Below, one piece after another: positions 4,518 to 54,851 of a stretch of DNA of 64,000 bases; positions within the stretch are counted from its first letter, which is position 1, and every line of letters begins with the position of its first letter. A model generated the notes under the pieces. It saw only the letters and a program-made list of their open reading frames with translations, made no database searches and was not told the DNA's origin. The translations under genes were made by a program, and so were the position numbers. Origin of the DNA: Polyangia bacterium (GTDB taxonomy: Bacteria > Myxococcota_A > Polyangia > Nannocystales > Nannocystaceae); the NCBI GenBank assembly GCA_030430565.1, contig JAUIKS010000008.1:47225-111224 (forward strand), given 5' to 3'.

Positions 4518-4741
4518 GCACGCGACGACGCGCCGGCGCACGGAGCACGCGGTCGCGCGACAACGCGCCGACACCGTCCGAGTTGAGATCGACCCGTTCG
4601 CGACCGAGGCTCATTTTTGTTCACCGCGAGCCGCGGCCCGGCGCTCGATCCCAGATAAACAATGTACGTCGACTGTTTGGGCACGCGCGATCTCAATCTA
4701 TTTTACTTGCTAGCAGCAAGCAAGTTCGATAAGCCGAGATT

Positions 4742-6349
4742 ATGAACGCTCGGTACGTCGCCCCATCGTTGCTCGTCTGCTCGCTCGTCCTGGGTTGTTC
4801 GGCTGGAGATAACGATCGCGAGACCGACGCGTCGGGCTCGAGCAGCGGCCTCAGCGATGATTCGACTGGCTCTGAGGACATGTCGTCAACCGACGCCTCC
4901 GGCGGCGAGACGATGGGCGCGAGCACGAGCTCGGGCTCCAGCACCACGGGCGACACGAACGACCCCACGACCGGCGCGCCGCTCGAGTGCTGGGAGCAGC
5001 CCGGCCCCTGGCACCTCGGGTGGGCGATCCCCGAGCCGGCGCCGATCGACGGGGACCCGGTCGAGGGCGAGTGGGCGCTGCTGCACGAGGACTACGTCAG
5101 CTGCGGGGTCCCGCTGAGCATCTTCAACCTCGGCAAGGCCTTCCTCGGGACCTACGCCGACGGCGAGTCGCTCCCCTGGCGCGACGGCGAGAACGCCAAC
5201 CTCCCCTACAACTGGACCGCGGTGACCTCGGAGGGCGGCACCGAGCTCGCGGCCATGAACTGCCTGACCTGTCACGCGGGCAAGTTCAACGGCGAGCTGA
5301 TCATCGGCCTGGGCCGCCACGACGCCGACTACACCGAGAGCTTCACCTCGCTGCTCTCGCTGTTCCCCGAGCTGCCCGAGTTCACCGACGCGGGCAAGGA
5401 GATCAACAAGTTCATCAGCCGCTACGACGCGCTGGGGCCCTACATCCAGACCGAGACGATCGGGACCAACCCGGCCGACAACGTCGCGGTGATCCTGGCC
5501 TCGCACCGCGACCCGCAGACCCTCGCCTGGTCGGACGAGCAGCTGATCCCCGTCGACCCGCCGGTCGTCCCGGTCGACACGCCGCCGTGGTGGCGCGTCA
5601 AGAAGAAGGGCGGTCACTTCTACAACGGCATGTCACGCGGCGATCACCGCGGCACGATGATGTTCGCCTCGTCGCTGTGCGTGGACACGACGGAGAAAGC
5701 CGAGGAGATGCTCGGCTACTTCAACCACATCCGCGCGTTCCTCGAGAGCATCGAGGCGCCCGCCTACCCGTGGGCGATCAACGAGGAGCTGGCGGCCGAG
5801 GGCGAAGAGATCTTCGAGTGCGCCTGCGCGGGCTGTCACGGGACCTACGACGACGACCCGGAGCTCGAGACCTTCCCGAACCTCCTGATCCCGCTCGAGG
5901 TGATCGGCACCGACTCGCTGCTCGGCGACGCGGCCGCGGACGACCTCGGCACCCTCGTCGAGTGGTTCAACAGCTCGTGGTACGGCGACGTCACCCAGCT
6001 GACGGTCGACGAGCCGTTCATCGGCTACACCGCCCCGCCGCTCGACGGCGTCTGGGCGACCGCGCCGTATCTGCACAACGCGTCGGTTCCGACCCTCGAG
6101 CTGGTCCTCGACTCGACCAAGCGCCCCGACTTCTGGCGGCGCGTCGACTACGACAGCACCAACTACGACCGCGACGCGCTCGGCTGGCCATGGGAGGCGA
6201 CGGGCGGGCAGGACACCGTGCCGCCGAGCGAGCGCCGGCATATCTACGACACGACGAATCTCGGGTATGACAACGGCGGGCACACCTTCGGCGACCACCT
6301 CACCGCCAGCGAGCGCGAGGCGTTGCTCGAGTACCTCAAGACGATCTGA
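4742..6349 (+). CDS. Lipoprotein di-haem c-type cytochrome, cytochrome-c-peroxidase/MauG/RoxA-superfamily-like (paralog 1 of 3)
   Basis: Signal peptide with lipobox LVLGC, then an S/T/G/D-rich linker. Two CxxCH motifs (NCLTCHAG, CAGCHG). C-terminal block PPLDGVWATAPYLHNASVPTLE resembles the CCP/MauG PYFHNGS region. Ends EYLKTI. Confidence 0.7.
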   Translation: MNARYVAPSLLVCSLVLGCSAGDNDRETDASGSSSGLSDDSTGSEDMSSTDASGGETMGASTSSGSSTTGDTNDPTTGAPLECWEQPGPWHLGWAIPEPAPIDGDPVEGEWALLHEDYVSCGVPLSIFNLGKAFLGTYADGESLPWRDGENANLPYNWTAVTSEGGTELAAMNCLTCHAGKFNGELIIGLGRHDADYTESFTSLLSLFPELPEFTDAGKEINKFISRYDALGPYIQTETIGTNPADNVAVILASHRDPQTLAWSDEQLIPVDPPVVPVDTPPWWRVKKKGGHFYNGMSRGDHRGTMMFASSLCVDTTEKAEEMLGYFNHIRAFLESIEAPAYPWAINEELAAEGEEIFECACAGCHGTYDDDPELETFPNLLIPLEVIGTDSLLGDAAADDLGTLVEWFNSSWYGDVTQLTVDEPFIGYTAPPLDGVWATAPYLHNASVPTLELVLDSTKRPDFWRRVDYDSTNYDRDALGWPWEATGGQDTVPPSERRHIYDTTNLGYDNGGHTFGDHLTASEREALLEYLKTI

Positions 6350-6367
6350 TCAGCAGGAGCGCGAACC

Positions 6368-7798
6368 GTGACCAATCATCAGAAGTTCTACATTGACGGA
6401 CAGTGGGTCGACCCCCAGCGCGAGGGGACGCTCGACGTGATCAACCCGGCGACCGAGGAGTCGATCGCGACCATCGCCGCGGGGTCGCCCGACGACGTCG
6501 ACCGCGCGGTGTCGGCGGCCCGCCGCGCGTTCGAGAGCTACTCGCGGACGAGCGCGCGGGAGCGCGGCGAGCTGCTCGCGCGGGTGATCGGCGCCTACGA
6601 GGCGCGCCTCCCTGAGCTCGCGGCCGCGATCTCCAGCGAGATGGGGGCGCCGATGGGCCTGGCGACGAGCCTGCAGGCGCCCTGCGGCCTCGCCCACCTC
6701 GCGAACGCGCGGGCGGCCCTCGAGACCTTCAGCTTTGAGGAGCGCGTCGGCGGTCACCTGATCGCGCGCGAGCCGGTCGGGGTGTGCGGCCTGATCACGC
6801 CGTGGAACTGGCCGATGAACCAGCTCGCGGCGAAGCTCGGCCCGGCGCTGGCGACCGGCTGCACGGTCGTGGTCAAGCCGTCGGAGGTCTCGCCGCTCAG
6901 CGCGTTGATCCTCGCCGAGGTCATGCACGACGCCGGCGTGCCGGCGGGCGTGTTCAACATGATCAACGGCGACGGGCCGACGGTCGGCACCGCGATCGCG
7001 GCGCACCCCGGCGTCGACATGGTCTCGATCACCGGCTCGACGCGCGCCGGCGTGTCGGTCGCCGAGCACGCGGCGAAGACGGTCAAGCGCGTGGCCCAGG
7101 AGCTCGGCGGCAAGTCGCCGAACATCATCCTCGACGACGCCGATCTCGCGGCGGCTGTCGCCCGCGACACCTTCCTCCTGTGCATGAACTCGGGGCAGTC
7201 CTGCAACGCGCCGAGCCGCATGCTGGTCCCGCGCGCGCGCGTGGACGAGGCCGCGGCGATCGCCCGCGCGACCGCGGAGCAGATCAAGGTCGGCGCCCCG
7301 GGCGACGCGGCCACGCAGATCGGCCCCGTCGCCTCGCGCGCGCAGTTCGAGAAGATCCAGGGCCTGATCAAGCAGGGGATCGAGGCGGGCGCGAAGCTCG
7401 AGTGCGGCGGCCTCGGCCGCCCCGAGGGCCTCGCGCGCGGCTTCTACGTCAAGCCCACCGTGTTCTCCCACGTGTCGAACGACATGGTCATCGCGCAGAC
7501 CGAGATCTTCGGCCCGGTGCTGTGCATCATCGGCTACGACGACGAGGACGACGCGGTGCGCATCGCGAACGAGACGGAGTACGGCCTGTGCGCCTACGTC
7601 AGCGCCGGCACGCTCGAGCGCGCGGCCGCGATCGCGCGACGCGTCCGCGCCGGCACCGTGCACCTCAACGGCGCGAGCGTCGATCTCGGCGCGCCCTTCG
7701 GCGGCTACAAGCGCTCGGGGAACGGGCGCGAGTTTGGGCGGTGGGGCTTCGAGGATTACCTCGAGACCAAGTCGATGCTCGGCTACAGCGCGTCGTGA
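6368..7798 (+). CDS. NAD(P)+-dependent aldehyde dehydrogenase
   Basis: Full-length ALDH-family pattern: GLITPWNWP, ELGGKSP, catalytic Cys region MNSGQSCNAPSR, EIFGPVL. GTG start. Confidence 0.9.
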   Translation: MTNHQKFYIDGQWVDPQREGTLDVINPATEESIATIAAGSPDDVDRAVSAARRAFESYSRTSARERGELLARVIGAYEARLPELAAAISSEMGAPMGLATSLQAPCGLAHLANARAALETFSFEERVGGHLIAREPVGVCGLITPWNWPMNQLAAKLGPALATGCTVVVKPSEVSPLSALILAEVMHDAGVPAGVFNMINGDGPTVGTAIAAHPGVDMVSITGSTRAGVSVAEHAAKTVKRVAQELGGKSPNIILDDADLAAAVARDTFLLCMNSGQSCNAPSRMLVPRARVDEAAAIARATAEQIKVGAPGDAATQIGPVASRAQFEKIQGLIKQGIEAGAKLECGGLGRPEGLARGFYVKPTVFSHVSNDMVIAQTEIFGPVLCIIGYDDEDDAVRIANETEYGLCAYVSAGTLERAAAIARRVRAGTVHLNGASVDLGAPFGGYKRSGNGREFGRWGFEDYLETKSMLGYSAS

Positions 7799-7858
7799 CG
7801 CGAGCGCGCCTCGAGTGCGCGCGTGAGCGGGTTGTAGGCGCTGCAGCTTCGCTGTAGA

Positions 7859-8527
7859 TTGTGCAGTCTGGCGACCCAGAACGAACGCAAGCGCAAGCGC
7901 TCCTCGAGCTCCGCGACACGCCGGCGAACGCAGGAGGAGCGCACGGCGCTCTCAGAGCAGCGCATGATCGACGCGGCCGTGAGCCTGCTGGTCGAGCGCG
8001 GCATCGCCGGGATGACGCTGGCGAGCATCGGCGAGCGCTCGGGCTACTCGCGCGGGCTCGTGACGCACCGCTTCGGCTCAAAAGCCGGTCTCTTGGGACA
8101 TGTCCACGACAGCGTCGCGGCCGAGTGGCTGCGGCGCGTGCAGGCCGTAGTCGGCGACGCGACCGGCGTCGTCGCGCTGCAGCGCGTCACGGACGCGCTG
8201 CTCCAGTTCATGGAGGAAGAGCCCGACGACCTGCGCGCGATGTACCTGCTGCGCTACGCGAGCATCGATCCCAGCGCCGAGTACCGCGCGAACGTGTCAC
8301 GGGTGAACCGCGCGCACATCCGCGCGCTCGCGGCCTGGGTCGAGGAGGGTCAGGCCAAGGGCGAGATCGCGGATGACGTCGACGCCGACCTCGCCGCCGA
8401 GCTGTTCGCCAGCGTGATCGACGGCCTGCTCTACCGCTGGCTGGTGACGCCGAGCATCCCGGTTCGGCAGCTGCAGGCGATCCTGCGCGAGAACGTCGGG
8501 CAGGCGCTGAAGAGCGCGCAGGGCTAA
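7859..8527 (+). CDS. TetR/AcrR-family transcriptional regulator
   Basis: N-terminal TetR HTH (RMIDAAVSLLVERGIAGMTLASIGERSGYSRGLVTHRFGSKAGLL). Likely TTG start at 7859; start not certain. Confidence 0.75.
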   Translation: MCSLATQNERKRKRSSSSATRRRTQEERTALSEQRMIDAAVSLLVERGIAGMTLASIGERSGYSRGLVTHRFGSKAGLLGHVHDSVAAEWLRRVQAVVGDATGVVALQRVTDALLQFMEEEPDDLRAMYLLRYASIDPSAEYRANVSRVNRAHIRALAAWVEEGQAKGEIADDVDADLAAELFASVIDGLLYRWLVTPSIPVRQLQAILRENVGQALKSAQG

Positions 8528-8580
8528 TCAACCCGTGACGAGTTTTCGCGCTTGACCACGGCGCTCGCATATGTAATTTG

Positions 8581-8595
8581 CTTGTTGCCAACAAG
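8581..8595. promoter_or_regulatory. Perfect 15-bp palindrome CTTGTTG-C-CAACAAG just upstream of the ACAD gene, preceded by AT-rich TATGTAAT. Putative TetR operator.
   Basis: Read directly in the sequence. The same motif recurs at 24401-24415 and, with one mismatch, at 24530-24544. Confidence 0.5.
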
Positions 8596-8615
8596 TTTAA
8601 AGCAGCGGGCCCCCC

Positions 8616-9782
8616 ATGACGCCGAGAACGATCTTCGATCCTGACCACGAGCTGTTCCGAAGCTCCGTGCGTCGCTTCTTCCAGTCCGAGGTCACGCCGC
8701 ACGTCGACCGCTGGCGCGAGGCGGGCGTCGTCGACCGCGAGGTGTTCGAAAAGGCAGGTGAGCAGGGCTACCTGCTGATGTGGGCGGACGAGCGCTTCGG
8801 CGGCCTGGGGATCACCGACATGCGCTACGAGCAGATCCTGCAAGAGGAGAACTTCCGCAGCGGGGACCCCGGCCTGTGCCTGACGCTGCACTCCCGCGTG
8901 GTCGCGCCCTACATCGGCGACCACGGGACCGAGGAGCAGAAGCAGCGCTGGCTCCCGCCGGCGATCCGCGGCGAGGCGATCCTCGCGGTCGCGATGTCAG
9001 AGCCCTCCGCCGGCTCCGACCTCGGCGCGATGAAGACCCGCGCCGAGCGACGCGGCGACCACTGGGTGCTGCGCGGCTCGAAGACCTACATCTCCAACGG
9101 GCTGCTGGCGGACCTCGTGATCGTCGCGGCGCGCACCCAGAGCGACTCGCGGCACTCGATGGGGCTGTTCGTCGTCGAGGCCGACAGGCCGGGCTTCAAG
9201 CGCGGCCGCAAGCTGCACAAGCTCGGCCTCAACGCCCAGGACACCGCCGAGATGTTCTTCGACGAGCTCGTGTTGCCGGCGGAGAACGTGCTCGGCGATC
9301 CCAGCCAGGGCTTTCGCTACTTGATGCAGGCGCTCGCGGTCGAGCGCCTGCAGATCGCGATCGGGGCGATCGCCCACGCCCAGGTCGCCTTCGACCTCAC
9401 GCTCGACTTCGTCAAGGAGCGCACCGCCTTCGGGCGCCCCGTGGGCACCTTCCAGAGCCCGCGCTTTCGCCTCGCCCGCATGCGCGCCGAGCTCGACGCG
9501 CTGCAGAGCCACATCGACCACTGCGTCATGCTGGCCAACGACGGCGCGCTCTCGGCCGAGGTCGCGAGCGGCGCGAAGATGCTGGCGACCGAGCTGGAGG
9601 GGCGCGTGATCGACGACTGCCTGCAGCTGCACGGCGGCGCCGGCTACATGGAGGAGTACCGGATCAGCCGGATGTACCGCGACGCTCGCGTGACGCGGAT
9701 CTTCGGCGGGACCAACGAGATCATGGCCGAGATCATCGGCCGGAAGCTGGGGCTGGATGGACGGCAATACGCTCGCGGTTGA
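8616..9782 (+). CDS. Acyl-CoA dehydrogenase
   Basis: ACAD family: AMSEPSAGSDLGAMKT, YISNG, C-terminal GGAGYMEEYRISRMYRDARVTRIFGGTNEI. Confidence 0.9.
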   Translation: MTPRTIFDPDHELFRSSVRRFFQSEVTPHVDRWREAGVVDREVFEKAGEQGYLLMWADERFGGLGITDMRYEQILQEENFRSGDPGLCLTLHSRVVAPYIGDHGTEEQKQRWLPPAIRGEAILAVAMSEPSAGSDLGAMKTRAERRGDHWVLRGSKTYISNGLLADLVIVAARTQSDSRHSMGLFVVEADRPGFKRGRKLHKLGLNAQDTAEMFFDELVLPAENVLGDPSQGFRYLMQALAVERLQIAIGAIAHAQVAFDLTLDFVKERTAFGRPVGTFQSPRFRLARMRAELDALQSHIDHCVMLANDGALSAEVASGAKMLATELEGRVIDDCLQLHGGAGYMEEYRISRMYRDARVTRIFGGTNEIMAEIIGRKLGLDGRQYARG

Positions 9783-11010
9783 TCCCGCAGGGGCAGGCGA
9801 GATGACGCAGGAGGCCTCCGAGCGAGTCGCGTTTCGCGCGCGCTGCCGATCCTGGCTCTCGGGCAATGTCCCGGCGACGCCGGACTTCGAGCTGCCGCTC
9901 GGGCCGATCGAGATCTCGACGCCGCAGCAGCTCGAGCACCTGCGCGCGTGGCAGCGCGCGGCCTACCGCGCGGGCCTGGTCGGCTGCGACTACCCGACCG
10001 AGTACGGCGGCGGCGGGCGAGCGGGCTTTCAGCGGATCGCGAACGAGGAGATGCAGGCCGCCGACGCGCCGTTCTTCCCCAACATCGTGGGGCTAGGGAT
10101 GGCGGGGCCGGCGATCTTCCACCACGGCACCGAGGCGCAGAAGCGGCGCTACCTGCCGCCGCTGCTCTCGGGCGCGGAGATCTGGTGCCAGGGCTTCAGC
10201 GAGCCCGGCGCCGGCTCCGACCTGGCGAACGTCCAGACCTTCGCGCGCCGCGTCGGCGATCGCTGGGTGATCAGCGGGCACAAGGTCTGGACCTCGCTCG
10301 CGCAATTCGCCGACTGGATGATCCTGCTGTGCCGCACCGATCGCGGGCACAAGCACCGCGGGCTCTCGTACTTCATCGTCCCGATCGCGTCGGCGCGCGG
10401 CCGCGGCGTCACCGTCCGCCCCCTCGTCAAGATGACTGGAGGGACAGGTTTTAACGAGGTCCTGCTGGACGAGCTCGAGGTCGGCGACGACGCGCGCCTC
10501 GACGAGGTCGGCCGCGGCTGGAGCGTCGCCATGACGACCCTGCTGCACGAGCGCGGCGCCGGCTCGCTCGTGACCCCCACGGCCCGCTCGAGCCGCAGCG
10601 AGGCGCTGAGCCCGGCCCGGCTCATCGCGCTCGCGCGCGCGTGTCGACGCGGCGATCGGGCGGCGGCCGACGACCCCGTGCTCCGCGACAGGCTCGTCCA
10701 GCTGATGATCCGCCAGCGCGCGCTCGAGCAGAGCGAGCGGCGCGCCGCCGTGGCGGCGCTCACCGATCATCCGCAGCGGCTCCCGCTCCAGCGCAAGCTG
10801 CTGCGCTCGGAGCTCCAGCAGGACACGGCGCGGCTGGCGTGCGAGCTCGAGGGTATGGCGAGCACGCTGCGCGGGTCGCAGGCGCCGGCGGGCGGGCGGT
10901 GGCCGCTCGCGTACATGAACTCCTACGGCTTCACGATCGCCGCCGGCACCAGCGAGGTCCAGCGCAACATCCTGGGTGAGCGCGTGCTCGGCCTGGCGAA
11001 GTCGAAGTAA
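9757..11010 (+). CDS. Acyl-CoA dehydrogenase (second of cluster). Start may be the ATG at 9802 rather than 9757.
   Basis: GFSEPGAGSDLANVQT and ACAD-like N- and C-terminal domains. 9757 start overlaps the previous gene by 26 nt. ATG at 9802 is preceded by GGGGCAGG. Confidence 0.8.
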   Translation: MDGNTLAVDPAGAGEMTQEASERVAFRARCRSWLSGNVPATPDFELPLGPIEISTPQQLEHLRAWQRAAYRAGLVGCDYPTEYGGGGRAGFQRIANEEMQAADAPFFPNIVGLGMAGPAIFHHGTEAQKRRYLPPLLSGAEIWCQGFSEPGAGSDLANVQTFARRVGDRWVISGHKVWTSLAQFADWMILLCRTDRGHKHRGLSYFIVPIASARGRGVTVRPLVKMTGGTGFNEVLLDELEVGDDARLDEVGRGWSVAMTTLLHERGAGSLVTPTARSSRSEALSPARLIALARACRRGDRAAADDPVLRDRLVQLMIRQRALEQSERRAAVAALTDHPQRLPLQRKLLRSELQQDTARLACELEGMASTLRGSQAPAGGRWPLAYMNSYGFTIAAGTSEVQRNILGERVLGLAKSK

Positions 11011-11032
11011 CCCGAGCTGACGAGGAGCCCGC

Positions 11033-12217
11033 GTGAACGCGCAACCAGACGACTTCGGTTTTGACGACGAGGCCCAGCTGCTGAAGCAGACCGCGCGCCG
11101 CCTGCTCGCCGAGCGGCTCCCGACCGCGGCGCTGCACCAGCTCGTGGCCGCGAGCTACGACCCGACGCGCGCGCGCGCGTGCGTCTGGGACCAGGCGCTG
11201 TGGCGCGAGCTCGTCGAGCTCGGGTGGACCGCCGTCGCGGTCCCGGCGGAGCTCGGCGGCTTCGGCATGGGGCTCGCCGCGGTCGCGGGGCTCGTCGAGG
11301 AGCTCGGCCGCGCCGCCCTGCCCTCGCCGCTGATCCCCACCCTGTGCGCGACCTACGTGCTGCGCGCGTGCGCCAGCGAGGGCGCCGATATGTTGCTCGC
11401 GCGGATCGCCGAGGGCGCCGCAGTCAGCCTGGCGACCACCGATCAGCACGGCTCGTGGGACGTCGAGGCCTGTGATGTCTCGGTCGTCGAGGGCGAGGGC
11501 GGCGAGGTAATCCTCGACGGCGTCGCGCACTACGTCCAGGACGCCATGAAGGCCGACGTGTTCCTCGTCAAGGCGAGCGCGCGGCGCGGCGGCGTCGGCC
11601 TGTACGTCGTCGAGCGCGACGCGCCCGGCGTCACCGTCGCGCCCGACGCGATCGTCGACCTGACCCGCGATCAGGCGCGCGTCGAGCTCCGCGGCGTCAA
11701 GCTCTCCGCCCGCGCGATCGCGGCCTCGCCCCGCGACGGCGCGCGCGCGCTGAGCTCGGCCGAGGCCGCGCTGCTGGTGCTCGTCACCGCCGACATGGTG
11801 GGCGCCGCCGAGTGGCAGCTGCAGACCACCGCCGAGTACGCGCGAACCCGCGTGCAGTTCGACCGCCCGCTCGGCTTCTTCCAGGCGGTCAAGCACCCGA
11901 TCGTCAACATGATGATCAAGATCGACGAGGCCCGCTCGCTGCTCTACGACGCGGCCTGCTCCTTTGACCATGAACCAGATCACGCCGAGCGACGCGCGCG
12001 CATGGCGAAGTCGGCGGCGAGCGACGCGGCGGCGTTCTGCTCGAGCCGCTCGGTGCAGCTGCACGGCGGCATCGGCTTCACCTGGGAGTGCTTCGTGCAC
12101 CTGTACTTCAAGCGCCAGAAGCACAACGAGGTGCTCTACGGCGACGGCGCGCACCAGCGAGCGAGGCTCGCGGAGCTGATGATCGGCCCGATCAGGGGGA
12201 CGCGCGCGTGCGCGTGA
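11033..12217 (+). CDS. Acyl-CoA dehydrogenase family protein (third of cluster)
   Basis: ACAD C-terminal domain pattern (QFDRPLGFFQAVKHPIVNMMIKIDEARSLL ... QLHGGIGFTWE). Confidence 0.8.
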   Translation: MNAQPDDFGFDDEAQLLKQTARRLLAERLPTAALHQLVAASYDPTRARACVWDQALWRELVELGWTAVAVPAELGGFGMGLAAVAGLVEELGRAALPSPLIPTLCATYVLRACASEGADMLLARIAEGAAVSLATTDQHGSWDVEACDVSVVEGEGGEVILDGVAHYVQDAMKADVFLVKASARRGGVGLYVVERDAPGVTVAPDAIVDLTRDQARVELRGVKLSARAIAASPRDGARALSSAEAALLVLVTADMVGAAEWQLQTTAEYARTRVQFDRPLGFFQAVKHPIVNMMIKIDEARSLLYDAACSFDHEPDHAERRARMAKSAASDAAAFCSSRSVQLHGGIGFTWECFVHLYFKRQKHNEVLYGDGAHQRARLAELMIGPIRGTRACA

Positions 12218-12242
12218 CGAGCGTGATGAGCGTGAGAGAAGA

Positions 12243-13352
12243 GTGGTCCCCGCGATGAAGATCGTCGCCGCCGTCGCGCGCCCGCGCGAGCCCTTCGCGC
12301 TCGCGGAGTGCGAGCTCGCGGAGCCCGGGCCGCGCGAGCTCCGAGTCAAGGTCGAGGCCTGCGGGCTGTGCCGCACCGACCTCTCGGCCAAGGACCACGA
12401 CTACGGGACGCCGCTGCCCGCGGTGCTCGGCCACGAGGGCGTGGGCCGCGTCGAGGCGCTCGGCGACGAGGTCGACGGCTTCGCGATCGGCCAACGCGTG
12501 CTCATGAGCTTCGGCGCGTGCGGACGCTGCGGCGAGTGCCGCCAGCGGATGCCCGCCTACTGCGCGCGGGCCATGGACTTCAACGTGTTCGGGCGCCGAC
12601 CGGACGGGACCGGACCGATCACCCTCGAGGGCCAGGCGATCACCGGGCACTTCTTCGGTCAGTCGTCCTTTGCGAGCCACGCGGTCGTCTCGACCACCAA
12701 CCTCGTGCCGCTCGCCGACGACCTTCCGCCGACCTTGATGTGCGGGCTCGCGTGCGGCGTCCAGACGGGCGTGGGCGCCGCGCTGAACGTGCTGCGCGTC
12801 GAGCCCCGTGATGTCCTCGTGGTCGCCGGCTGCGGCACCGTGGGCCTGTCCGCCGTGATGGGGGCCGTGATCGCCGGCTGCGCCTCGATCATCGCGATCG
12901 ACCGCAGCGACGCGCGGCTCGAGGTCGCGCGCTCGCTCGGGGCCACGCGCGTGATCAACAACCGCGGGCTCGACCGTGACGCGCTCAAGCGCCAGCTCCG
13001 GCAGCTGGGGCCCACGCGCGCCGTCGACAGCACCGGCGCTCCCGAGGTCATCGAGGCCGTGTTCGCGGCGCTGCGACGACGCGGCGTGCTCGCGCTGGCC
13101 GGCTTGAGCCGCGCGCGGACGCGGATCTCGATCGACGCCAACCGGCTGATGTCGAGCGGACGGGTCATCCGCGGGACCGTCGAGGGCGACGCCGACCCGC
13201 GCGTGTTCATCCCGCAGATGATCGCGTGGTACCGACGCGGCCAGCTGCCGCTGGAGGCGCTCGTGACGAGCTATCCCTTCGTGCAGATCAACCGCGCCGC
13301 GGAGGCGCTCGACCGGGGTCGCGCGATCAAGCCGGTGCTGTTCATGGACTGA
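12243..13352 (+). CDS. Zinc-dependent alcohol dehydrogenase (MDR superfamily)
   Basis: GLCRTDL, GHEGVGRVEALG, structural-zinc CGRCGECRQRMPAYC, GxGxxG Rossmann motif VAGCGTVGL. Confidence 0.85.
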   Translation: MVPAMKIVAAVARPREPFALAECELAEPGPRELRVKVEACGLCRTDLSAKDHDYGTPLPAVLGHEGVGRVEALGDEVDGFAIGQRVLMSFGACGRCGECRQRMPAYCARAMDFNVFGRRPDGTGPITLEGQAITGHFFGQSSFASHAVVSTTNLVPLADDLPPTLMCGLACGVQTGVGAALNVLRVEPRDVLVVAGCGTVGLSAVMGAVIAGCASIIAIDRSDARLEVARSLGATRVINNRGLDRDALKRQLRQLGPTRAVDSTGAPEVIEAVFAALRRRGVLALAGLSRARTRISIDANRLMSSGRVIRGTVEGDADPRVFIPQMIAWYRRGQLPLEALVTSYPFVQINRAAEALDRGRAIKPVLFMD

Positions 13353-13370
13353 GGACGAGGAGCCGAGACG

Positions 13371-13841
13371 ATGAACCCGACACAGCAGCTCAACGAATTC
13401 TTGGCGCGGAGCGAGGCCCGCGAGGCGGCGCTCTCCGTCGCCGCGCTCCACGAGTTCTTCGACCAGCTCGACGTCATCGAGACCTCGTTCCTCCACGGGG
13501 GCTGGACCGGCGCGGTGCTGCGCACTGGGCACCCCGGCGAGGGGCAGCTCGGCGCGATCCGCTGGGACGGCAAGCGCTTCCACGACGACAACGACGTCGA
13601 CCCGATCATCTCGCGGGACCCAAGCGGCGCGCGCGTGGCCAACCCGGTATTGGGCAAAGCCGCGCTGCGGATGGTCCGCTACCGCGGCGCGGTCACGGCG
13701 ACGATGATCTACGACAAGCACCCGATCTTCGATCACTTCCGCCGAGTCGACGACGACACGGCGCTCGGCGTCATGGACCGCAAGGGGGAGGCGGCGCCGC
13801 TGTTCTTCTGCCTGCGGCGGCTCCCCGGCGACCTTTCCTAG
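13371..13841 (+). CDS. DUF4334/GXWXG-domain protein
   Basis: GGWTG motif and the size and composition typical of GXWXG-DUF4334 proteins. Sits inside the beta-oxidation cluster. Confidence 0.55.
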   Translation: MNPTQQLNEFLARSEAREAALSVAALHEFFDQLDVIETSFLHGGWTGAVLRTGHPGEGQLGAIRWDGKRFHDDNDVDPIISRDPSGARVANPVLGKAALRMVRYRGAVTATMIYDKHPIFDHFRRVDDDTALGVMDRKGEAAPLFFCLRRLPGDLS

Positions 13842-13934
13842 GATCTGTTCACAAAGACATCTTTAAGAACCCGGCGCGCGCGCCGGGCCGCGAACGCTCG
13901 CGGACGACTCACAGCGATAGAGAGGCTCAACACG

Positions 13935-15146
13935 ATGCAACAGAGCGCGTTCATCTACGACGCGCTCCGCACCCCGCGTGGCAAGAACCGGGGCGGAGCG
14001 CTGCACGGCACCAAGCCAGTCGACCTCGTCGTCGGGCTGCTCGACTCGCTCGAGCCCCGCAACCAGGGCCTCGACCTGGCGCGCGTCGACGACATCGTGC
14101 TGGGCGTGGTCTCGCCGGTCGGCGAGCAGGGCGGCGACATCGCGCGCACGGCCGCGCTCGTCTCGGGCCTGCCGCAGAGCGTCCCCGGGGTGCAGATCAA
14201 CCGCTTCTGCGCCTCCGGGCTCGAGGCGGTCAACCTCGCCGCGGCGAAGGTCGCCTCGGGCTCCGACGAGCTCGTGATCGCCGGCGGCGTCGAGTCCATG
14301 TCGAGGATCCCGCTGGGCTCCGACGGCGGCGCCTACGTCCAGGACCCGACCACCGTCTACGACGCCTACTTCGTGCCCCAGGGGATCAGCGCCGATCTGG
14401 TCGCGACGATCGAGGGCTTCGGCCGCGGGGACGTCGACGCCTACGCGGTCGCCTCGCAGCAGCGCGCGGAGCGAGCCTGGACGAGCGGCTACTTCGCGCG
14501 CTCGGTCGTGCCGGTTAAAGACCTCAACGGCCTGACGATCCTCGACCACGACGAGCACCGGCGCCCGCGCTCGACGGTCGAGTCGCTCGCGGGGCTGCGC
14601 CCGGCCTTCGTCAAGATGGGCGAGCTCGGGGGCTTCGACGCCGTCGCGCTGCAGAAGTACCACCACGTCGAGCGGATCAACCACGTGCACACGGCCGCGA
14701 ACTCCTCGGGGATCGTCGACGGCGCCGCGCTGATGCTGCTGGGCAGCGAGCGCGTCGGCGCCGAGCTGGGGCTGCGGCCGCGCGCGCGCGTGGTCTCGAT
14801 GGCGGCGGTCGGCAGCGAGCCGACCATCATGCTCACCGGGCCGACGCCCGCGACCGAGAGAGTGCTCACGCGCGCGGGCCTGAAGCTCGCCGACATCGAC
14901 CTGTTCGAGGTCAACGAGGCCTTCGCGTCGGTGGTGCTCAAGTGGATGCGCGACCTGGATGTCCCGCTGGACAGGGTCAACGTCAACGGCGGCGCGATCG
15001 CCATGGGTCACCCGCTGGGCGCGACCGGGGCCATCATCCTCGGCACGCTGCTCGACGAGCTCGAGCGCCGAGGGCTGCGCTACGGGCTCGCCACGCTCTG
15101 CGTGGGCGCGGGCATGGGGATCGCCACCATCATCGAGCGCTTGTAG
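13935..15146 (+). CDS. fadA: Acetyl-CoA C-acyltransferase (3-ketoacyl-CoA thiolase)
   Basis: Thiolase motifs [22 protein letters not shown]-terminal [17 protein letters not shown] and CVGAGMG. Confidence 0.9.
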
Positions 15147-15172
15147 GCGACGGACGCGAGGAGGACGAACAG

Positions 15173-17344
15173 ATGAGCCAGTCAACCAGCACCGCGATTC
15201 ACTGGAGCCGTGACGACGACGGGGTCGTGACCCTGACGATGGACGACCCGTCGTCGAGCGTGAACACGATGAACGCCGCCTACATCAATTCAATGGAGGT
15301 GAGCGTCGCGCGGCTCGAGGCCGAGCGCGAGACGATCACGGGCGTGATCCTCTGCAGCGCCAAGCGCAGCTTCTTCGCCGGCGGCGACCTCAACGCGCTG
15401 CGCCAGAGCAGCCTCGACAACGCCGCCGAGCAGACCGCCCGCATCGACCTCATGAAGGAGCAGTTCCGGCGGCTGGAGAAGCTCGGTCGCCCGGTCGTCG
15501 CCGCGATCAACGGCAGCGCGCTCGGCGGGGGTCTCGAGGTCGCGCTCGCGGCCCACCACCGCGTCGTCGCCGATGTCCCTGGCTGCCAGCTCGGCGCCCC
15601 CGAGGTCACGCTGGGGCTGCTCCCCGGCGGCGGCGGCGTCACCCGGCTCGTGCGCATGCTCGGCCTGCAGACCGCGCTGACCAAGGTGATCCTGCGCGGG
15701 CAGAAGTACGGCCCGCGCGACGCGCTCGAGCTCGGCCTCGTCGACGAGGTGGTCGAGAGTACAGATGACCTGGTCGCGCGCGCGAAGGCGTGGATCACCG
15801 CCAACCCCGCGCCCGTCAAGCCGTGGGACGTCAAGGGCTTCAAGATCCCCGGCGGCTCGGCCGCGCATCCGAAGGTCGCGTACATGCTCCCGGCGATGAC
15901 CGCGAACCTCCGCAAGCAGCTCAAGGGCGCCCCGCTGCCGGCGCCCCGGGCCGCGCTCGCGGCCGCGGTCGAGGGCTCGCTGGTCGACTTCGACACCGCC
16001 TCGCGGATCGAGACGCGCTACCTCGTCCACCTCGCCTGCGGACAGGTCGCCAAGAACATGATCAAGGCGTTCTTCTTCGACCTGCGCGAGCTCAACGCGG
16101 GCGCCAGCCGCCCCGCGGGCTTCTCGAAGTACGCGGCGCGCAAGCTCGGGGTGCTCGGCGCCGGCATGATGGGCGCCGGGATCGCCTACGTCGCCGCCAA
16201 GGCCGGCGTCGAGGTTGTCTTAAAAGACACCTCGATCGAGCGCGCGCGCGCCGGCAAGGCCTACGCCGCGAAGGTCGAGGCCAAGCAGCAACAGCGCGGC
16301 CGGACCACGCCGGAGCGCTCGGCCGAGCTGCTCGCGCGCATCCACCCCACCGACGACGCGGCGGACTTTGAGGGCGTCGACCTGGTGGTCGAGGCCGTGT
16401 TCGAAGACGTCGCGGTCAAGCAGAAGGTGTTTCAGCAGATCCAGGACATCGCCAGCCCCGAGGCGCTGCTGGCCTCGAACACCTCGACGCTCCCGATCAA
16501 GACGCTGTCGGAGGGGGTGAAGCGCCCCGCGGACTTCATCGGCCTGCACTTCTTCTCGCCGGTCGACAAGATGCGGCTCGTCGAGATCGTCCGGGGCGAG
16601 AACACCTCGGACGCCGCGCTCGCGCGCGCCTTCGACTTCGTCCTGCAGATCGGCAAGACGCCGATCGTGGTCAACGACGCGCGCGGCTTCTTCACCTCGC
16701 GGGTCATCGGGCGCTTCACCGCCGAGGCCGTCGCCGCCGTCGGCGAGGGGATCGAGCCGGCGTCGATCGAGCAGGCGGCGCTGCAGGCCGGCTACCCCAC
16801 GGGCGCGCTGCAGCTGCTCGACGAGCTGACGCTGACCTTGACGCAGAAGATCCAGCGCGAGAACCGAAAGGCCGCCGAGGCAGCGGGCGAGACGTACACG
16901 CCGCACCCGGCGGAGGCCGTGTTCGACCGGATGATCGACGAGCTCGGTCGCACGAGCCGCAAGGACGGCGGCGGCTTCTACGACTACGACGAGAGCGGCA
17001 AGCGCGTCGGCATCTGGCCGGGGCTGCGCGAGGCGTTTAACTCGGGTTCGAAGACGATCCCGCTGATTGATCTCCAGGAGCGCATGCTGTTCGCCGAGGC
17101 GATCGACACGGTGCGCTGCCTCGACGACAACGTGCTCACCTCGGCTGCGGACGCCAACATCGGCTCGATCTACGGCATCGGCTTCCCGGCCTGGACCGGC
17201 GGCGTCCTGCAGTACATCAACCAGTACAAAGGCGGGCTGAAGGGCTTCGTCGCGCGCGCGCGCGCGCTCGCGTCGTCGTATGGTCCACACTTCGAGCCGC
17301 CGGCGTCGCTGGTCGCCAAGGCCGAGGCCGGCGAGACCTACTGA
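15173..17344 (+). CDS. fadB: Fatty-acid oxidation multifunctional enzyme (enoyl-CoA hydratase + 3-hydroxyacyl-CoA dehydrogenase)
   Basis: ATG after GGAGGACGAACAG gives MSQSTSTAIHWSRDDDGVVTLTMDDP. Crotonase fold, then NAD-binding VLGAGMMGAGIAYV and a 3HCDH C-terminal domain. The longer ORF-track start (14942) lies inside fadA and was rejected. Confidence 0.9.
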   Translation: MSQSTSTAIHWSRDDDGVVTLTMDDPSSSVNTMNAAYINSMEVSVARLEAERETITGVILCSAKRSFFAGGDLNALRQSSLDNAAEQTARIDLMKEQFRRLEKLGRPVVAAINGSALGGGLEVALAAHHRVVADVPGCQLGAPEVTLGLLPGGGGVTRLVRMLGLQTALTKVILRGQKYGPRDALELGLVDEVVESTDDLVARAKAWITANPAPVKPWDVKGFKIPGGSAAHPKVAYMLPAMTANLRKQLKGAPLPAPRAALAAAVEGSLVDFDTASRIETRYLVHLACGQVAKNMIKAFFFDLRELNAGASRPAGFSKYAARKLGVLGAGMMGAGIAYVAAKAGVEVVLKDTSIERARAGKAYAAKVEAKQQQRGRTTPERSAELLARIHPTDDAADFEGVDLVVEAVFEDVAVKQKVFQQIQDIASPEALLASNTSTLPIKTLSEGVKRPADFIGLHFFSPVDKMRLVEIVRGENTSDAALARAFDFVLQIGKTPIVVNDARGFFTSRVIGRFTAEAVAAVGEGIEPASIEQAALQAGYPTGALQLLDELTLTLTQKIQRENRKAAEAAGETYTPHPAEAVFDRMIDELGRTSRKDGGGFYDYDESGKRVGIWPGLREAFNSGSKTIPLIDLQERMLFAEAIDTVRCLDDNVLTSAADANIGSIYGIGFPAWTGGVLQYINQYKGGLKGFVARARALASSYGPHFEPPASLVAKAEAGETY

Positions 17345-17387
17345 GGCCTACGGAGGCCTACTGAGACCCCACCGACGACAGGACCCC

Positions 17388-18568
<1,181 letters not shown>

Positions 18569-18572
<4 letters not shown>

Positions 18573-19621
18573 GCTCGAGCGGCGGCGACACCCAGGACTG
18601 GGCGCGCGCGCGCGCGTACCTGGCGGGGCGCGGGCTCGAGCTCGAGCTCGAGCCCGCGCCCCGGCGACTCTCGGGCGGCTTCGCCAACCTCAACTTCCTC
18701 GTCCGCGTGAACGGGGCGCCCATGGTCCTGCGGCGCCCGCCGCCCGGGGAGCTGCCGCCGGGCGCCTACGACATGGGCCGCGAGCACCGGATCCTCTCGC
18801 GCCTGTGGACCGCGTTCCCGCTCGCGCCGCGCGGGCTGCTGCTGTGCGACGACCCCTCGGTCCTCGGCGCGCCCTTTCAGCTGCTCGAGTACCGCGAGGG
18901 CGTCACGATCCGCGACGAGCTCCCCGCCGCGCGCGCCGATGACGAGGCCCTCGCCGCGCGGCTCGGGGCGATGATGATCGAGCGCCTCGCCGAGCTGCAC
19001 CGCGTGGACCCGGACGCGGTCGGCCTCGACACGCTGGGCCGCCCCGCCGGCTTCCTCGCGCGCGCGGTCCGGGGCTGGACCAAGCGCGCGCGGCTCTGCT
19101 TCGCGACCTTCGCGCGCGGGCTGCCGCCCCTGGCGAACGAGCTCGCTACCTGGCTCGACGAGCACCTCGTGCCCGACGCCGCGGTCAACCTGCTGCACAA
19201 CGACTTCAAGCTCGACAACATCGTGCTCGACCCCGCCAGCTTCGAGCCGGTCGCGCTGCTCGACTGGGACCAGGGGACGCGCGGCGACGGCCTGTTCGAC
19301 CTGGCGACGCTGCTCTCGTACTGGACCGAGGCGGGCGACCCGGCGCCGATGCACGACATGCGGCAGATGCCGACCGCGCGCGCCGGCTTCCCCACGCGCG
19401 AGCGCGCCGCCGCTCACTACGCGTCGATCACGGGCCGCGACCTCTCGGGCTTCCGCTTCCACCGCGTGCTCGGGCAGTTCAAGACCGCGGTGATCTTCGC
19501 GCAGCTGCACGCGCGCTGGCGGGCGGGCGACACCGACGACCCGCGCTACGCGGAGTTCGGCCCGCTCGCGCTCGGCCTGCTCGAGGTCGCGCACGAGATC
19601 GCGCGCGGCCGGCAATTCTGA
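18569..19621 (+). CDS. Aminoglycoside-phosphotransferase/choline-kinase-family (APH-like) kinase
   Basis: GTG start overlaps the ACAD stop (GTGA). Brenner motif HNDFKLDNIVL and LLDWDQGTRGD. N-terminal nucleotide-binding lobe FLVRVNGAPMVLRRPP. Confidence 0.8.
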
Positions 19622-19673
19622 GCGTCCCCAACAAGCTGGCCAAAAGGCCACAAGAACCACAACGCGAGATCGA

Positions 19674-20510
19674 GTGACCATGAAGACAGGGAGCCTCGAG
19701 GGCAAGACGCTCTTTATCACCGGCGCGAGCCGAGGGATCGGCAAGGCGATCGCGCTGCGAGCCGCCCAGGACGGAGCCAACGTCGCGGTCGTCGCCAAGA
19801 CGGCCGCGCCGCACCCGCGGCTCCCCGGGACGGTCTACACTGCGGTCGAGGAGCTCGAGGCGGCGGGCGGCCGCGCGATCGGGCTCATCACTGATATCCG
19901 CTTTGAGGAGCAGGTCGAGGCCGCGGTTGCGAAGACGGTCGAGACCTTCGGGGGGATCGACATCCTCGTCAACAACGCCAGCGCGATCAGCCTGACGGGG
20001 ACCTTGGAGACGACGATGAAGCGCTTTGACCTGATGCACCAGGTCAACGCGCGCGGCGCCTTCCTGTGCTCCAAGACCTGCCTGCCGCACCTCAAGCGGG
20101 CCCAAAACCCGCACATCCTCACGCTCTCGCCGCCGCTGAGCATGCGGCCGCGTTGGTTCGAGCCGCACTGCGCCTACACCATGGCGAAGTTCGGCATGAG
20201 CATGTGCGTGCTCGGGATGGCCGCGGAGTTTCGGCGCGACCGCGTCGCCGTCAACGCGCTGTGGCCGAGGACGATGATCGCGACGGCCGCGGTCCGCAAC
20301 CTGCTCGGCGGCGAGCAGGCCGTCGCCGCCTCCCGGCGCCCCGAGATCGTCGCCGACGCGGCGCACGTGCTCCTGACGCGCGCGAGCGACGAGGTGACCG
20401 GTCAATTCTTCACGGACGAGCAGGTCCTGAAGGAAGCGGGCGTGACGGAGTTTTCAAAGTACGCGCTCCGGCCGGACGTCGAGCTGATCCCGGATCTGTT
20501 CTTGGACTGA
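19674..20510 (+). CDS. Short-chain dehydrogenase/reductase (SDR)
   Basis: TGASRGIGKAIA cofactor-binding motif, NNASAI, catalytic YTMAKFG (YxxxK). Confidence 0.85.
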   Translation: MTMKTGSLEGKTLFITGASRGIGKAIALRAAQDGANVAVVAKTAAPHPRLPGTVYTAVEELEAAGGRAIGLITDIRFEEQVEAAVAKTVETFGGIDILVNNASAISLTGTLETTMKRFDLMHQVNARGAFLCSKTCLPHLKRAQNPHILTLSPPLSMRPRWFEPHCAYTMAKFGMSMCVLGMAAEFRRDRVAVNALWPRTMIATAAVRNLLGGEQAVAASRRPEIVADAAHVLLTRASDEVTGQFFTDEQVLKEAGVTEFSKYALRPDVELIPDLFLD

Positions 20511-22086: not shown

Positions 22087-22122
22087 GGGCTCGTGCTCCG
22101 TGCCTGGGGGGTCAGGGGCTGA

Positions 22123-24372: not shown

Positions 24373-24400
24373 GGGGATTCTCGCTTTCGTTGCCGAAAAA

Positions 24401-24415
24401 CTTGTTGGCAACAAG
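24401..24415. promoter_or_regulatory. Palindrome CTTGTTG-G-CAACAAG in the divergent promoter region between the di-haem gene and the DUF2236 gene. A one-mismatch copy sits at 24530-24544 (CTTGTTGGCAACTAG).
   Basis: Read directly in the sequence; reverse complement of the 8581-8595 motif. Confidence 0.5.
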
Positions 24416-24623
24416 CAAATACACAGGAAGCGGACAGCCGGTCAAGTGACGCGCTCGAACACCGTACGATGACCGTTTGGTCGGTTTTGGGGGAAATCGA
24501 GCGTCGCTCCGCGCGGCACGGGCAACTTACTTGTTGGCAACTAGCAAATTTAAACGCATCCTCGACAGCATCAAGCGACATGCCGAGCCCCACCACGAGA
24601 CGAACGCTCCTGTCCCCCAGAAC

Positions 24624-28385: not shown

Positions 28386-28688
28386 CCGCGACACTATACA
28401 AGCAAGCCGCGCAATAACGACGTCCACGTTCCCGCGCCGCGCCGCGCCTTGCTACTGTCGTGGGCCGCAGCTCGCGCGCGAGCGGACGCGCCCTGTCTGT
28501 TCATGGAGGAACGCATGACGCCTAGACACCGACCCCTCTGGCCCGCCCTCGCAGCCCGTGGCGAACGTCCACGCGCCGGCACACGTGATCCCTCCGCCGC
28601 CGACTTCGTTGGCGAAACGAGCAGTACGCCCGAAACAACTTCGTTTCACCGCCTCGCCCGCGACGAGAACTCCGGCGCGAGCCGACAC

Positions 28689-40450: not shown

Positions 40451-40647
40451 CGCTCCGCTCCTGTGTTCGTTAGTTGGAGCCGCGGGCGCGGAGAAGGGTG
40501 CACGGCGCGAGCGCACGCCCGCGCGCGCCCGCGCGGGGCGAGTTTCGTGGGTTCGCGGGCGTGCACCCTCTGGCGCCCGCGCTGCCTCCAACGATCGAGG
40601 CATCGAGAGCCGGGGCCGCGACGCGGCCACCGCGAGGGAGGGGCAGC

Positions 40648-52197: not shown

Positions 52198-52324
52198 GCT
52201 ATCAGCTCGCTGAAACGCGTCGCGTGGTCGCCAGCGCGTCAACGGCGTCCGCCGCGAAGCCGAGACGAGGTTGATTCGGGCATGGTTGTTGGGGCAGCGA
52301 TGCGGTTATGAAGGCGTGGGCGCT

Positions 52325-54751: not shown

Positions 54752-54778
54752 CGCGACGGCGACGGCGAACGATGAAGC

Positions 54779-54851
54779 GCACCCGACAGGATTCGAACCT
54801 GTGACATTCGGTTTAGAAGACCGACGCTCTATCCAACTGAGCTACGGGTGC
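54779..54851 (-). tRNA. tRNA-Arg (anticodon TCT)
   Basis: Reverse complement GCACCCGTAGCTCAGTTGGATAGAGCGTCGGTCTTCTAAACCGAATGTCACAGGTTCGAATCCTGTCGGGTGCG folds as a cloverleaf. Anticodon loop CTTCTAA. TPsiC GGTTCGAATCC. Confidence 0.85.

Follow-up and report, generated by a model that had tools for sequence, protein, structure and literature searches.

The stretch of DNA analysed here, a 64-kb window (64,000 nucleotides) on a contig of the Polyangia bacterium assembly GCA_030430565.1, harbours a cluster of predicted haem oxygenase and beta-oxidation genes, together with a gene for a TetR-family regulator (tetR, 7859-8527, + strand), the presumed binder of a palindromic motif repeated before several of these genes. 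Four copies of the motif are very probably operators of this TetR and would link four transcription units into one regulon. A first-pass annotation of the window had made the same central claim, namely that the palindrome is an operator of the local TetR and that the cluster forms one regulon, and comparative evidence from orthologous tetR loci, a motif-only metagenome scan, orthologous promoters and control DNA supports it.

Organisation of the locus

Predicted operon A (4742..8527, +) comprises the gene of a RoxA-like di-haem protein (paralog 1, 4742-6349), an aldehyde dehydrogenase gene (aldh, 6368-7798) and tetR, all assigned by Pfam and separated by gaps of 18 and 60 nt; its gene order recurs in the loci L002, L003 and L007 of the comparative set. 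It is succeeded by predicted operon B (8616..20510, +), an 11-gene beta-oxidation operon with short gaps on a single strand, in which Pfam identifies three acyl-CoA dehydrogenases (ACADs), a zinc-dependent alcohol dehydrogenase, GXWXG/DUF4334, a thiolase, a FadB-type hydratase/dehydrogenase, a fourth ACAD, an APH-family kinase and a short-chain dehydrogenase/reductase, and whose order is conserved in L002, L003, L014 and L122. Predicted operon C (20518..24372, -) consists of roxB (paralog 2, 22123-24372, matching the NCBIfam RoxB equivalog) and an acyl-CoA synthetase gene with an AMP-binding domain (20518-22086), in the order roxB, synthetase that is found in L121 as well. A gene for an MPAB_Lcp_cat (DUF2236) protein (24624-25577, +; Pfam PF09995, 168.8 bits; alternative start ATG 24687) is transcribed away from roxB, and paralog 3, passing Pfam RoxA-like_Cyt-c, follows at about 28452-30299 (+).

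The first-pass annotation had reported an exact 15-bp palindrome at 8581-8595 (CTTGTTGCCAACAAG), its reverse complement at 24401-24415 (CTTGTTGGCAACAAG) and a copy with one mismatch at 24530-24544 (CTTGTTGGCAACTAG); the coordinates are exact, as is the mismatch count. Its judgement that three copies are far beyond chance holds too, since three matches to CTTGTTGNCAACAAG with at most two mismatches stand against 0.04 expected in this window of 69.8% G+C, and 0 of 100 dinucleotide shuffles gave three such copies. For an independent search, a 27-bp position weight matrix (PWM) was built from 26 training sites at orthologous tetR loci in other genomes, with no site of the window among them. The scan of the window returned exactly four sites, scoring 40.6-47.2 bits, while the best non-overlapping score elsewhere in the window stayed below 13 bits and the maximum over 100 shuffles was 13.1 bits.

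Operator 1 (8575..8601, +; 27-mer AATTTGCTTGTTGCCAACAAGTTTAAA; 47.2 bits), with the exact palindrome at 8581-8595 as its core 15-mer, falls in the gap that separates tetR from the first ACAD gene (ATG 8616), where the earlier reading had placed it, and has counterparts between tetR and ACAD1 in L002, L003, L004 and L007. The 27-mer of operator 2 (24395..24421, -; TATTTGCTTGTTGCCAACAAGTTTTTC; core 24401-24415; 40.6 bits) ends 22 nt, and its core 15-mer 28 nt, upstream of the roxB start codon (ATG 24372). At a distance of 129 bp, operator 3 (24524..24550, -; AATTTGCTAGTTGCCAACAAGTAAGTT; core 24530-24544, one mismatch; 44.2 bits) precedes the MPAB/Lcp-like gene by 73 nt, counted to ATG 24624, the first in-frame start past the site, and both operators thus occupy the region between this gene and roxB (-); a counterpart of operator 3 in L121 lies between divergent lcp-like and hydrolase genes. 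Operator 4 (4700..4726, -; AACTTGCTTGCTGCTAGCAAGTAAAAT; 43.0 bits) has at 4705-4725 a dyad of 21 bp, ACTTGCTAGC-A-GCAAGCAAGT, and stops 16 nt short of ATG 4742 of RoxA-like paralog 1; its reversed orientation and its distance to the start codon are the same as for the sites upstream of roxA1-like genes in L002, L003, L005 and L007. The element at 4705-4725 (ACTTGCTAGCAGCAAGCAAGT) had been noticed earlier as a mere looser relative of the palindrome. It is present, and since it scores 43.0 bits with an independent PWM, more than the site at 24395-24421, it is a full member of the motif and, as judged by its match to the outer dyad described below, the most canonical copy of that dyad in the window.

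All four sites are intergenic. Although coding sequence makes up 79% of the orthologous loci, 38 of their 48 sites are clearly intergenic; the ten apparently intragenic ones were discounted, as they fall in 5' over-extended or antisense open reading frames (ORFs) of a simple ORF caller and not in homology-supported coding sequences. The PWM scan also bears out the earlier remark that no copy precedes paralog 3. The sole trace there is an isolated half-site, CTTGCTTGT, at 28398-28406 (-), in the short intergenic region shared with a divergent tetratricopeptide repeat gene; as it is expected 0.14 times by chance, it is not significant.

Architecture of the motif

The flanks of the 15-mer are conserved as well, giving the consensus AACTTG-CTTGTyGCCAr-CAAGTaAA. 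The 15-mer that had been proposed as the conserved unit is therefore too short a description: the conserved element spans 21-27 bp, with the family-wide dyad ACTTG-N11-CAAGT. In an alignment (A2) of 54 distinct sites, T5 and C18-T22 (CAAGT) are invariant, and A2, T4, C7, T8, G10 and A16 nearly so. Two dyads overlap within this block, the inner one (CTTGTTG-N-CAACAAG, the 15-mer; axis at column 14) being offset by 2 bp from the outer one (ACTTG-N11-CAAGT, a 21-mer; axis at column 12), the half-sites of which are 11 bp apart. Complementary cells amount to 82.5% for the inner dyad and 79.8% for the outer one, and covariation among the 54 sites does not rise above shuffles in either; the lack of covariation points to a protein site with independently constrained halves rather than to a selected hairpin.

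The outer dyad gains weight from Actinobacteria. Actinobacterial TetR loci, selected by a shared recognition-helix peptide, contain no match to the PWM. Nevertheless, 26 of 40 such loci (Amycolatopsis, Streptomyces and others) harbour (A/T)ACTTG-N12-CAAGT(A/T), of which ATACTTGCTTGTCGACTGGCAAGTAT is one instance, immediately before tetR. These sites (L040-L079, at about 9867-9904; for instance L049 at 9867 and L050 at 9873) have the same half-sites with a spacer 1 bp longer, and the genes around the actinobacterial tetR are not beta-oxidation genes. As the same half-sites accompany the same helix in Actinobacteria, the outer dyad is probably the family-wide recognition element; thus the perfect 15-mer is the inner dyad, and the predicted recognition element is ACTTG-N11-CAAGT.

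Promoter geometry

Of 52 sites, 32 have an exact TTGAC 23-26 nt before the 27-mer, and in the ortholog flanks a spacer of 16-17 nt after it places a TAAcTT or TAAgTT -10 hexamer within the left arm of the site. Owing to this fixed offset, the site would cover the -10 box and the predicted transcription start, a position that fits repression by occlusion. In the window, the promoter of the ACAD operon (8552..8579, +) would consist of a -35 box TTGACC at 8552-8557, 16 nt and a -10 box TAATTT at 8574-8579 that overlaps the left arm of operator 1. The -10-like box TATGTAAT pointed out by the first-pass annotation was hence roughly right by the ortholog alignment, although a consensus promoter scan called nothing there. 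For roxB (24416..24445, -), the candidate elements are TTGACC from 24445 to 24440 (offset -24), a spacer of 16-18 nt and a -10-like TGTATT/TATTTG overlapping operator 2; for the operon of the roxA1-like gene (4677..4704, +), they are TTGGGC at 4677-4682, a weak -35 box, 16 nt and TATTTT at 4699-4704, abutting operator 4. A sigma-54 promoter (TGGCA...TTGC) was considered by eye and rejected, as the GG-to-GC spacing does not fit.

The TetR protein

A TetR_N domain at residues 37-80 (43.6 bits against a Pfam cut-off of 24) provides the product of 7859-8527 with an N-terminal helix-turn-helix (HTH) of the TetR type, accompanied by a TetR_C_6 match. A search for relatives returned 508 TetR homologues at E<=1e-10, and no second TetR was found among the ORFs of the window that were scanned, i.e. 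those supported by G+C at third codon positions (GC3) up to about 56.5 kb, with four ORFs beyond left out. The AlphaFold2 model (predicted local distance difference test score, pLDDT, 80.9) has nine helices in an all-alpha two-domain fold. Foldseek gave 382 PDB matches at E<=0.001, and the 50 best listed are all TetR-family regulators, with TM-scores up to 0.85. These fold neighbours are 16-23% identical to the model and include the CoA-thioester sensors KstR2 and FadR (16-19% identity), besides HapR and SmeT. The fold is thus compatible with an acyl-CoA ligand and does not demonstrate one. A sequence search of the PDB found only distant, unrelated TetRs, none better than 4e-11, with no pointer to a ligand, and no NCBIfam model passes for the protein, the best being BetI (42 bits; cut-off 118) and Bacillus FadR (28 bits; cut-off 200).

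Conservation is concentrated in the DNA-binding part. The HTH segment IGExxGYSRGLxTHxFGSK is almost invariant even in motif-bearing homologues of 36-45% identity, the ligand domains of which are 26-36% identical, and the helix GYSRGLVTHxFGSK is retained throughout these homologues.

Conservation of the motif beside the regulator gene

For the comparative analysis, 79 loci encoding TetR relatives were gathered, one genome per species, of which L001-L038 are TetR orthologues (38-83% identity) from Myxococcota and Gammaproteobacteria. The 15-mer, with at most two mismatches, adjoins tetR in about two thirds of L001-L038, and a PWM site of at least 24 bits does so in 36 of the 38, across two phyla. 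The 36 loci cover Nannocystis, Paraliomyxa, Chondromyces, Minicystis and Haliangium on the one hand and Solimonas, Hydrocarboniphaga, Nevskia and Steroidobacteraceae on the other, and their gene order varies. In metagenome-assembled genomes (MAGs) related to the window, the order is site, roxA1-like gene, aldh, tetR, site, ACAD1-3, thiolase, fadB and ACAD4, with an extra site before the acyl-CoA synthetase gene. Nannocystis has site, tetR and a paralog-3-like gene, and elsewhere site, RoxA-like gene and ACAD1, while Chondromyces and Minicystis have site, tetR, ACAD1, RoxA-like gene and ACAD2. The gammaproteobacterial genera share the order site, tetR, thiolase, fadB and ACAD, and no RoxA-like gene is labelled within about 10 kb of their tetR. 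In all Nannocystis loci (L008-L013, at about 9900-9960), the stretch from the operator to the start of tetR also contains a direct repeat in doubled form, GGCTTTGACAA...GCTTTGACAAGAAAAAAA, which might serve as a further regulatory element or represent tandem -35-like boxes.

The association can also be recovered in the reverse direction, from the motif to the regulator. A metagenome scan with TTGCTTGTYGCCARCAAGT alone gave 39 matches, and a TetR homologue (36-63% identity) is directly adjacent in 12 of them; these 12 contigs all have at least 54% G+C and usually the order site, tetR, thiolase, fadB and ACAD. The low-GC metagenome matches lack a TetR homologue and look like chance matches or other systems. 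As a control, 787 kb of DNA around distant TetRs held no motif site, the maximum being 16.9 bits. A palindromic site is thus conserved beside the regulator gene in the orthologous loci, in the TetR-adjacent metagenome contigs and, as the N12 variant, in most of the actinobacterial loci.

Three metagenome contigs deserve separate mention. L084 (at 846-963) and L112 (at 436-608), both TARA ocean contigs of 47-48% G+C, each hold four clustered related palindromes (ACTTGTTCCGAACAAG, ACTTGCTTGCGACAAGT, ACTTGTTCACGACAAGT, ACTTGTTGGCAACAAGCAAGT) in non-coding DNA; no TetR homologue was detected on either contig, and the cluster resembles the iterons or the multi-operator region of a different element. 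The contig L107 (47% G+C) has two tandem sites of 51.4 and 45.9 bits at 842-901, upstream of an ORF that by eye resembles an MlaA/VacJ lipoprotein.

Identity of the oxygenases

Paralog 2 scores 993.8 bits with the NCBIfam RoxB equivalog NF050034 (cut-off 900) and shares 63% identity with characterised RoxB from Steroidobacter cummioxidans 35Y and 61% with its counterpart in Piscinibacter (Rhizobacter) gummiphilus; by family assignment it is a RoxB equivalog, i.e. a predicted rubber dioxygenase. The description of all three paralogs as di-haem oxygenases, given earlier, therefore stands for paralog 2, whereas paralogs 1 and 3 are RoxA-like proteins under all family cut-offs: they reach 87-168 bits with the Rox equivalogs (cut-offs 900-1000) and 123 bits with the CytoC_perox subfamily model (cut-off 150), and only Pfam RoxA-like_Cyt-c passes. 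The MPAB_Lcp_cat protein (24624-25577) matched no NCBIfam model and shows, by eye, no obvious signal peptide after ATG 24624, and it is best called an MpaB/Lcp-family oxygenase-like protein on the strength of its domain. A gene with the same Pfam domain (PF09995) adjoins roxB in L122 and lies two genes upstream of it in L121.

RoxB begins with a lipoprotein-type signal, …LSLGPVAC-GDDEGG (24304-24372, -), and RoxA-like paralog 1 with another, …LVLGC-SAGDND (4742-4800, +), each followed by an acidic low-complexity linker. As per a 2024 review, a lipoprotein signal is typical of RoxC and not of RoxB from strain 35Y (PMC10837239).

Proposed regulon and mechanism

The link between the motif and roxB extends beyond the window. 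Sites of 41-46 bits lie 35-55 nt upstream of the roxB orthologues in L121 (a Nannocystaceae MAG), L122 (Paraliomyxa miuraensis) and L123 (Minicystis rosea); L121 has further sites between its lcp-like and hydrolase genes and before an APH-family kinase gene, and L122 a further one before a hydrolase gene. Similarly, the orthologous promoters of the roxA1-like gene, the ACAD operon (ACAD1) and the acyl-CoA synthetase gene in related MAGs have the site. Within operon A, tetR follows aldh by 60 nt and the spacer has no significant RNA fold (z = 0.58), which makes autoregulation of tetR through operator 4 plausible. The APH-family phosphotransferase gene (18611-19621, +) sits inside the ACAD operon, and its homologue in L121 (16497-17641) has its own operator of 39.2 bits; the pairing of an embedded kinase with ACADs recalls the kinase-ACAD fusion of ACAD10/11.

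In the mechanism proposed here, a TetR dimer, or possibly two, bound at the 21-27-bp imperfect palindrome would block RNA polymerase, operators 1, 2 and 4 overlapping a -10-like hexamer and the predicted transcription start. The units covered would be the roxA-like gene, aldh and tetR (autoregulation), the 11-gene beta-oxidation operon, roxB with the acyl-CoA synthetase gene, and the MPAB/Lcp-like oxygenase gene. Release of the repressor may be brought about by an intermediate of the pathway, a fatty or oligo-isoprenoid acyl-CoA being the most likely one, and would jointly induce the cleavage of polyisoprenoid or unsaturated lipid outside the cell, the oxidation of the aldehydes, CoA activation and beta-oxidation. 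The analysis establishes the motif and its specificity, its link with the TetR in more than one phylum, its place at predicted promoters and the gene content; binding by the TetR, the sign of the regulation, the operon boundaries, the number of dimers and the ligand are all inferred. For Gram-negative rubber degraders, the proposed pathway likewise runs from extracellular cleavage over aldehyde oxidation and CoA activation to beta-oxidation (PMC5979037). The predicted gene set of the window matches this pathway, and the substrate may be polyisoprene or another unsaturated lipid.

Several results weigh against the regulon proposed here, or narrow it. A strict sigma-70 consensus scan called no promoter in the three intergenic regions of the window, so that the promoter boxes given above derive from the ortholog alignment, and no convincing -35 box could be made out for the lcp-like gene at operator 3. 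In the Nocardia group, most loci combine an identical recognition helix with the absence of a site upstream of tetR; thus, helix identity alone does not predict a site. The fold neighbours of the TetR, with identities of 23% at most, are no guide to the ligand, and the motif scan of this genome covered the 64 kb of the window only. Furthermore, roxB of S. cummioxidans 35Y and of P. gummiphilus, both proven rubber degraders, lacks the site; roxB of P. gummiphilus adjoins a LysR gene, and two other myxobacterial roxB loci have different TetRs. As the roxB genes of these classical rubber degraders are without the site, the oxygenase link is lineage-specific, and since no RoxA-like gene is labelled near the gammaproteobacterial tetR, it looks myxobacterial. 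The gammaproteobacterial sites border tetR and beta-oxidation genes only, while those of myxobacteria stand before oxygenase genes too. An ancestral role in beta-oxidation, to which oxygenases were added in myxobacteria, would account for this distribution, the direction of the change being an inference from present-day loci.

A broader proposal can be put forward more tentatively, and we would regard it as possible rather than probable. The TetR may belong to an unnamed lineage spread across several phyla and defined by the common helix GYSRGLVTHxFGSK and the half-site ACTTG (N11 in Myxococcota and Gammaproteobacteria, N12 in Actinobacteria). A tetR-thiolase-fadB-ACAD operon would have this TetR as its main switch in Nevskiales and Steroidobacterales, and among Nannocystineae-type myxobacteria the role of the TetR would have widened to that of a master switch of complete polyisoprenoid (rubber-type) catabolism, sensing an oligo-isoprenoid acyl-CoA. 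If this is true, a TetR of a multi-phylum lineage would be the first regulator known for a rox gene.

Alternative explanations

Another transcription factor might bind the palindrome, for instance a global regulator of lipid or carbon metabolism with its gene elsewhere, and tetR would then be just one more of its targets. Sites at genes far from tetR would suit such a factor, as in Minicystis rosea, where roxB is at 6.38 Mb and tetR at 13.29 Mb, and so would the two tandem sites before the MlaA-like ORF of L107, which have no TetR within 6 kb. However, the only gene that constantly borders the motif, in two phyla and in many different gene orders, is tetR, and no other regulator gene is conserved in these loci. 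The actinobacterial ACTTG-N12-CAAGT is again found on the tetR promoter despite different surrounding genes, and both the length of the palindrome and the spacing of its half-sites fit TetR operators. A foreign factor is thus considered improbable. The copies could instead represent a dispersed short repeat, similar to repetitive extragenic palindromic sequences or to miniature inverted-repeat transposable elements, or else a promoter element proper, recognised for instance by an alternative sigma factor, in both cases with no dedicated repressor. It is true that the AT-rich arms coincide with -10-like hexamers and that an extracytoplasmic function (ECF) sigma gene is present at 52325-53017. 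Yet only 21-27 bp are conserved while the flanks diverge, and the copies occupy orthologous promoters in genera with TetRs of 55-83% identity, unlike a mobile repeat; for a promoter part, the separate TTGAC -35 box at a fixed distance already explains the promoter, and the conserved block runs about 20 bp past the -10 box. Either version of this explanation appears very unlikely.

The least credible alternative is that the element acts as a nucleic acid, either as an RNA hairpin in the 5' leader (an attenuator or stability element) or as a DNA cruciform. The element is palindromic, and operators 1, 2 and 4 are 16-28 nt from the start codon and are therefore probably transcribed in part. Against this, the proportions of paired cells (82.5% and 79.8%) are the same as the means of the shuffles, and inner pairs are disrupted by the most frequent variants. 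The full dyad of the 15-mer leaves a loop of 1 nt, and a terminator scan of the three intergenic regions of the window detected no T-run or terminator-like site. Moreover, nothing in Rfam matches the element, and it is used in both orientations relative to the gene. The reading as a hairpin or RNA element was rejected on the covariation counts and the Rfam result, and operators of the TetR encoded at 7859-8527 are the explanation preferred here.

Other features of the window

Beyond the cluster, the window encodes a Ser/Thr kinase fused to AAA_16 at 2-3463 (-), an AAA_16/AAA_22 ATPase in which no kinase domain was detected (30408-32591, -), a PP2C phosphatase beside another kinase (39650-41448) and, besides the ECF sigma gene mentioned above (52325-53017), a sigma-54 activator (50725-52242). 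This gene content is typical of myxobacteria and agrees with the TetR homologues, which suggest a Nannocystaceae-like origin. Rfam matched two adjacent tRNA genes, 54778-54851 and 54880-54953 (-), and nothing else in the window.

Comparison with known systems

The TetR of the window, as far as its family matches go, belongs to no named regulator system, and a literature search for the motif strings gave only irrelevant primer and probe matches. The nearest functional parallel is provided by the fatty-acid TetR repressors, i.e. FadR/YsiA of Bacillus, FadR of Thermus and Sulfolobus, PsrA of Pseudomonas and Shewanella and FadP of Betaproteobacteria, with which the candidate system shares the TetR fold, promoters of ACAD, thiolase, FadB and synthetase genes that carry a predicted palindromic operator and, probably, autoregulation. 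FadR of Bacillus and of Sulfolobus are among its fold neighbours, but there is no orthology: the NCBIfam model of Bacillus FadR gives 28 bits against a cut-off of 200, and the PDB sequence matches, none better than 4e-11, are unrelated TetRs. The PsrA consensus, AAAC-N-GTTT, appears different from ACTTG-N11-CAAGT. The regulons of PsrA and FadP, both described as TetR-family regulators of fatty-acid degradation, were reconstructed by comparative genomics, FadP being reported as unique to Betaproteobacteria (PMC5343134), whereas the family described here occurs in Myxococcota, Gammaproteobacteria and, more distantly, Actinobacteria. In addition, the predicted regulon of the window differs from those of all these repressors by including extracellular haem oxygenase genes.

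A TetR repressor of a beta-oxidation-like regulon is also known in KstR2 of Mycobacterium tuberculosis, which responds to a CoA thioester and controls cholesterol ring C/D genes. KstR2 (4w97) ranks third among the fold neighbours, but it is only 18% identical and its substrate is a steroid; its operator, with inward-facing CAAG..CTTG half-sites and a short spacer, appears unlike the window motif. The block of 21-27 bp with two overlapping dyads exceeds the roughly 15 bp contacted by one TetR dimer, which brings to mind the two-dimer operators of QacR and TtgR, the latter being among the best PDB sequence matches of the TetR. Two dyads offset by only 2 bp do not, however, appear to be the QacR arrangement.

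With respect to rubber degradation, TetR-family LcpR regulators have been described as LcpRVH2 in Gordonia polyisoprenivorans, LcpRBA3(2) in Streptomyces coelicolor and ACTI_59620 and ACTI_69510 in Actinoplanes OR16; they bind palindromes in the promoter of the rubber oxygenase gene and control its induction (PMC7413915, PMC8235351). The candidate system resembles them in combining a TetR-family protein with a palindrome in a rubber oxygenase promoter. Nevertheless, the LcpR proteins regulate lcp, which encodes a b-type haem protein, in Actinobacteria and not roxB, and they are described as acting locally on lcp rather than on beta-oxidation genes; their published operators, GATGTTACAACGTTACTCGCGTTGTTACATC and TATGTTAATGAAAAATCACA, share no half-site with ACTTG-N11-CAAGT (PMC7413915). 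A 2024 review of Gram-negative rubber oxygenases mentions no rox regulator and does not discuss regulation (PMC10837239).

The kind of switch proposed here is thus ordinary, while the specific regulator, its operator and the link to roxB appear undescribed. By grouping oxygenases, an aldehyde dehydrogenase, an acyl-CoA synthetase, four ACADs, a thiolase and FadB, the operator delineates a complete candidate pathway in myxobacteria. The pairing of one helix with one half-site over three phyla, with a spacer change of 1 bp, offers a clean natural case for the study of TetR-DNA recognition, and the predicted operator could serve as an inducible promoter part for high-GC hosts. Whereas the literature searched describes TetR regulators for lcp in Actinobacteria only (PMC7413915, PMC8235351), the analysis of this window provides a candidate regulator and an exact predicted operator for roxB and its companions.

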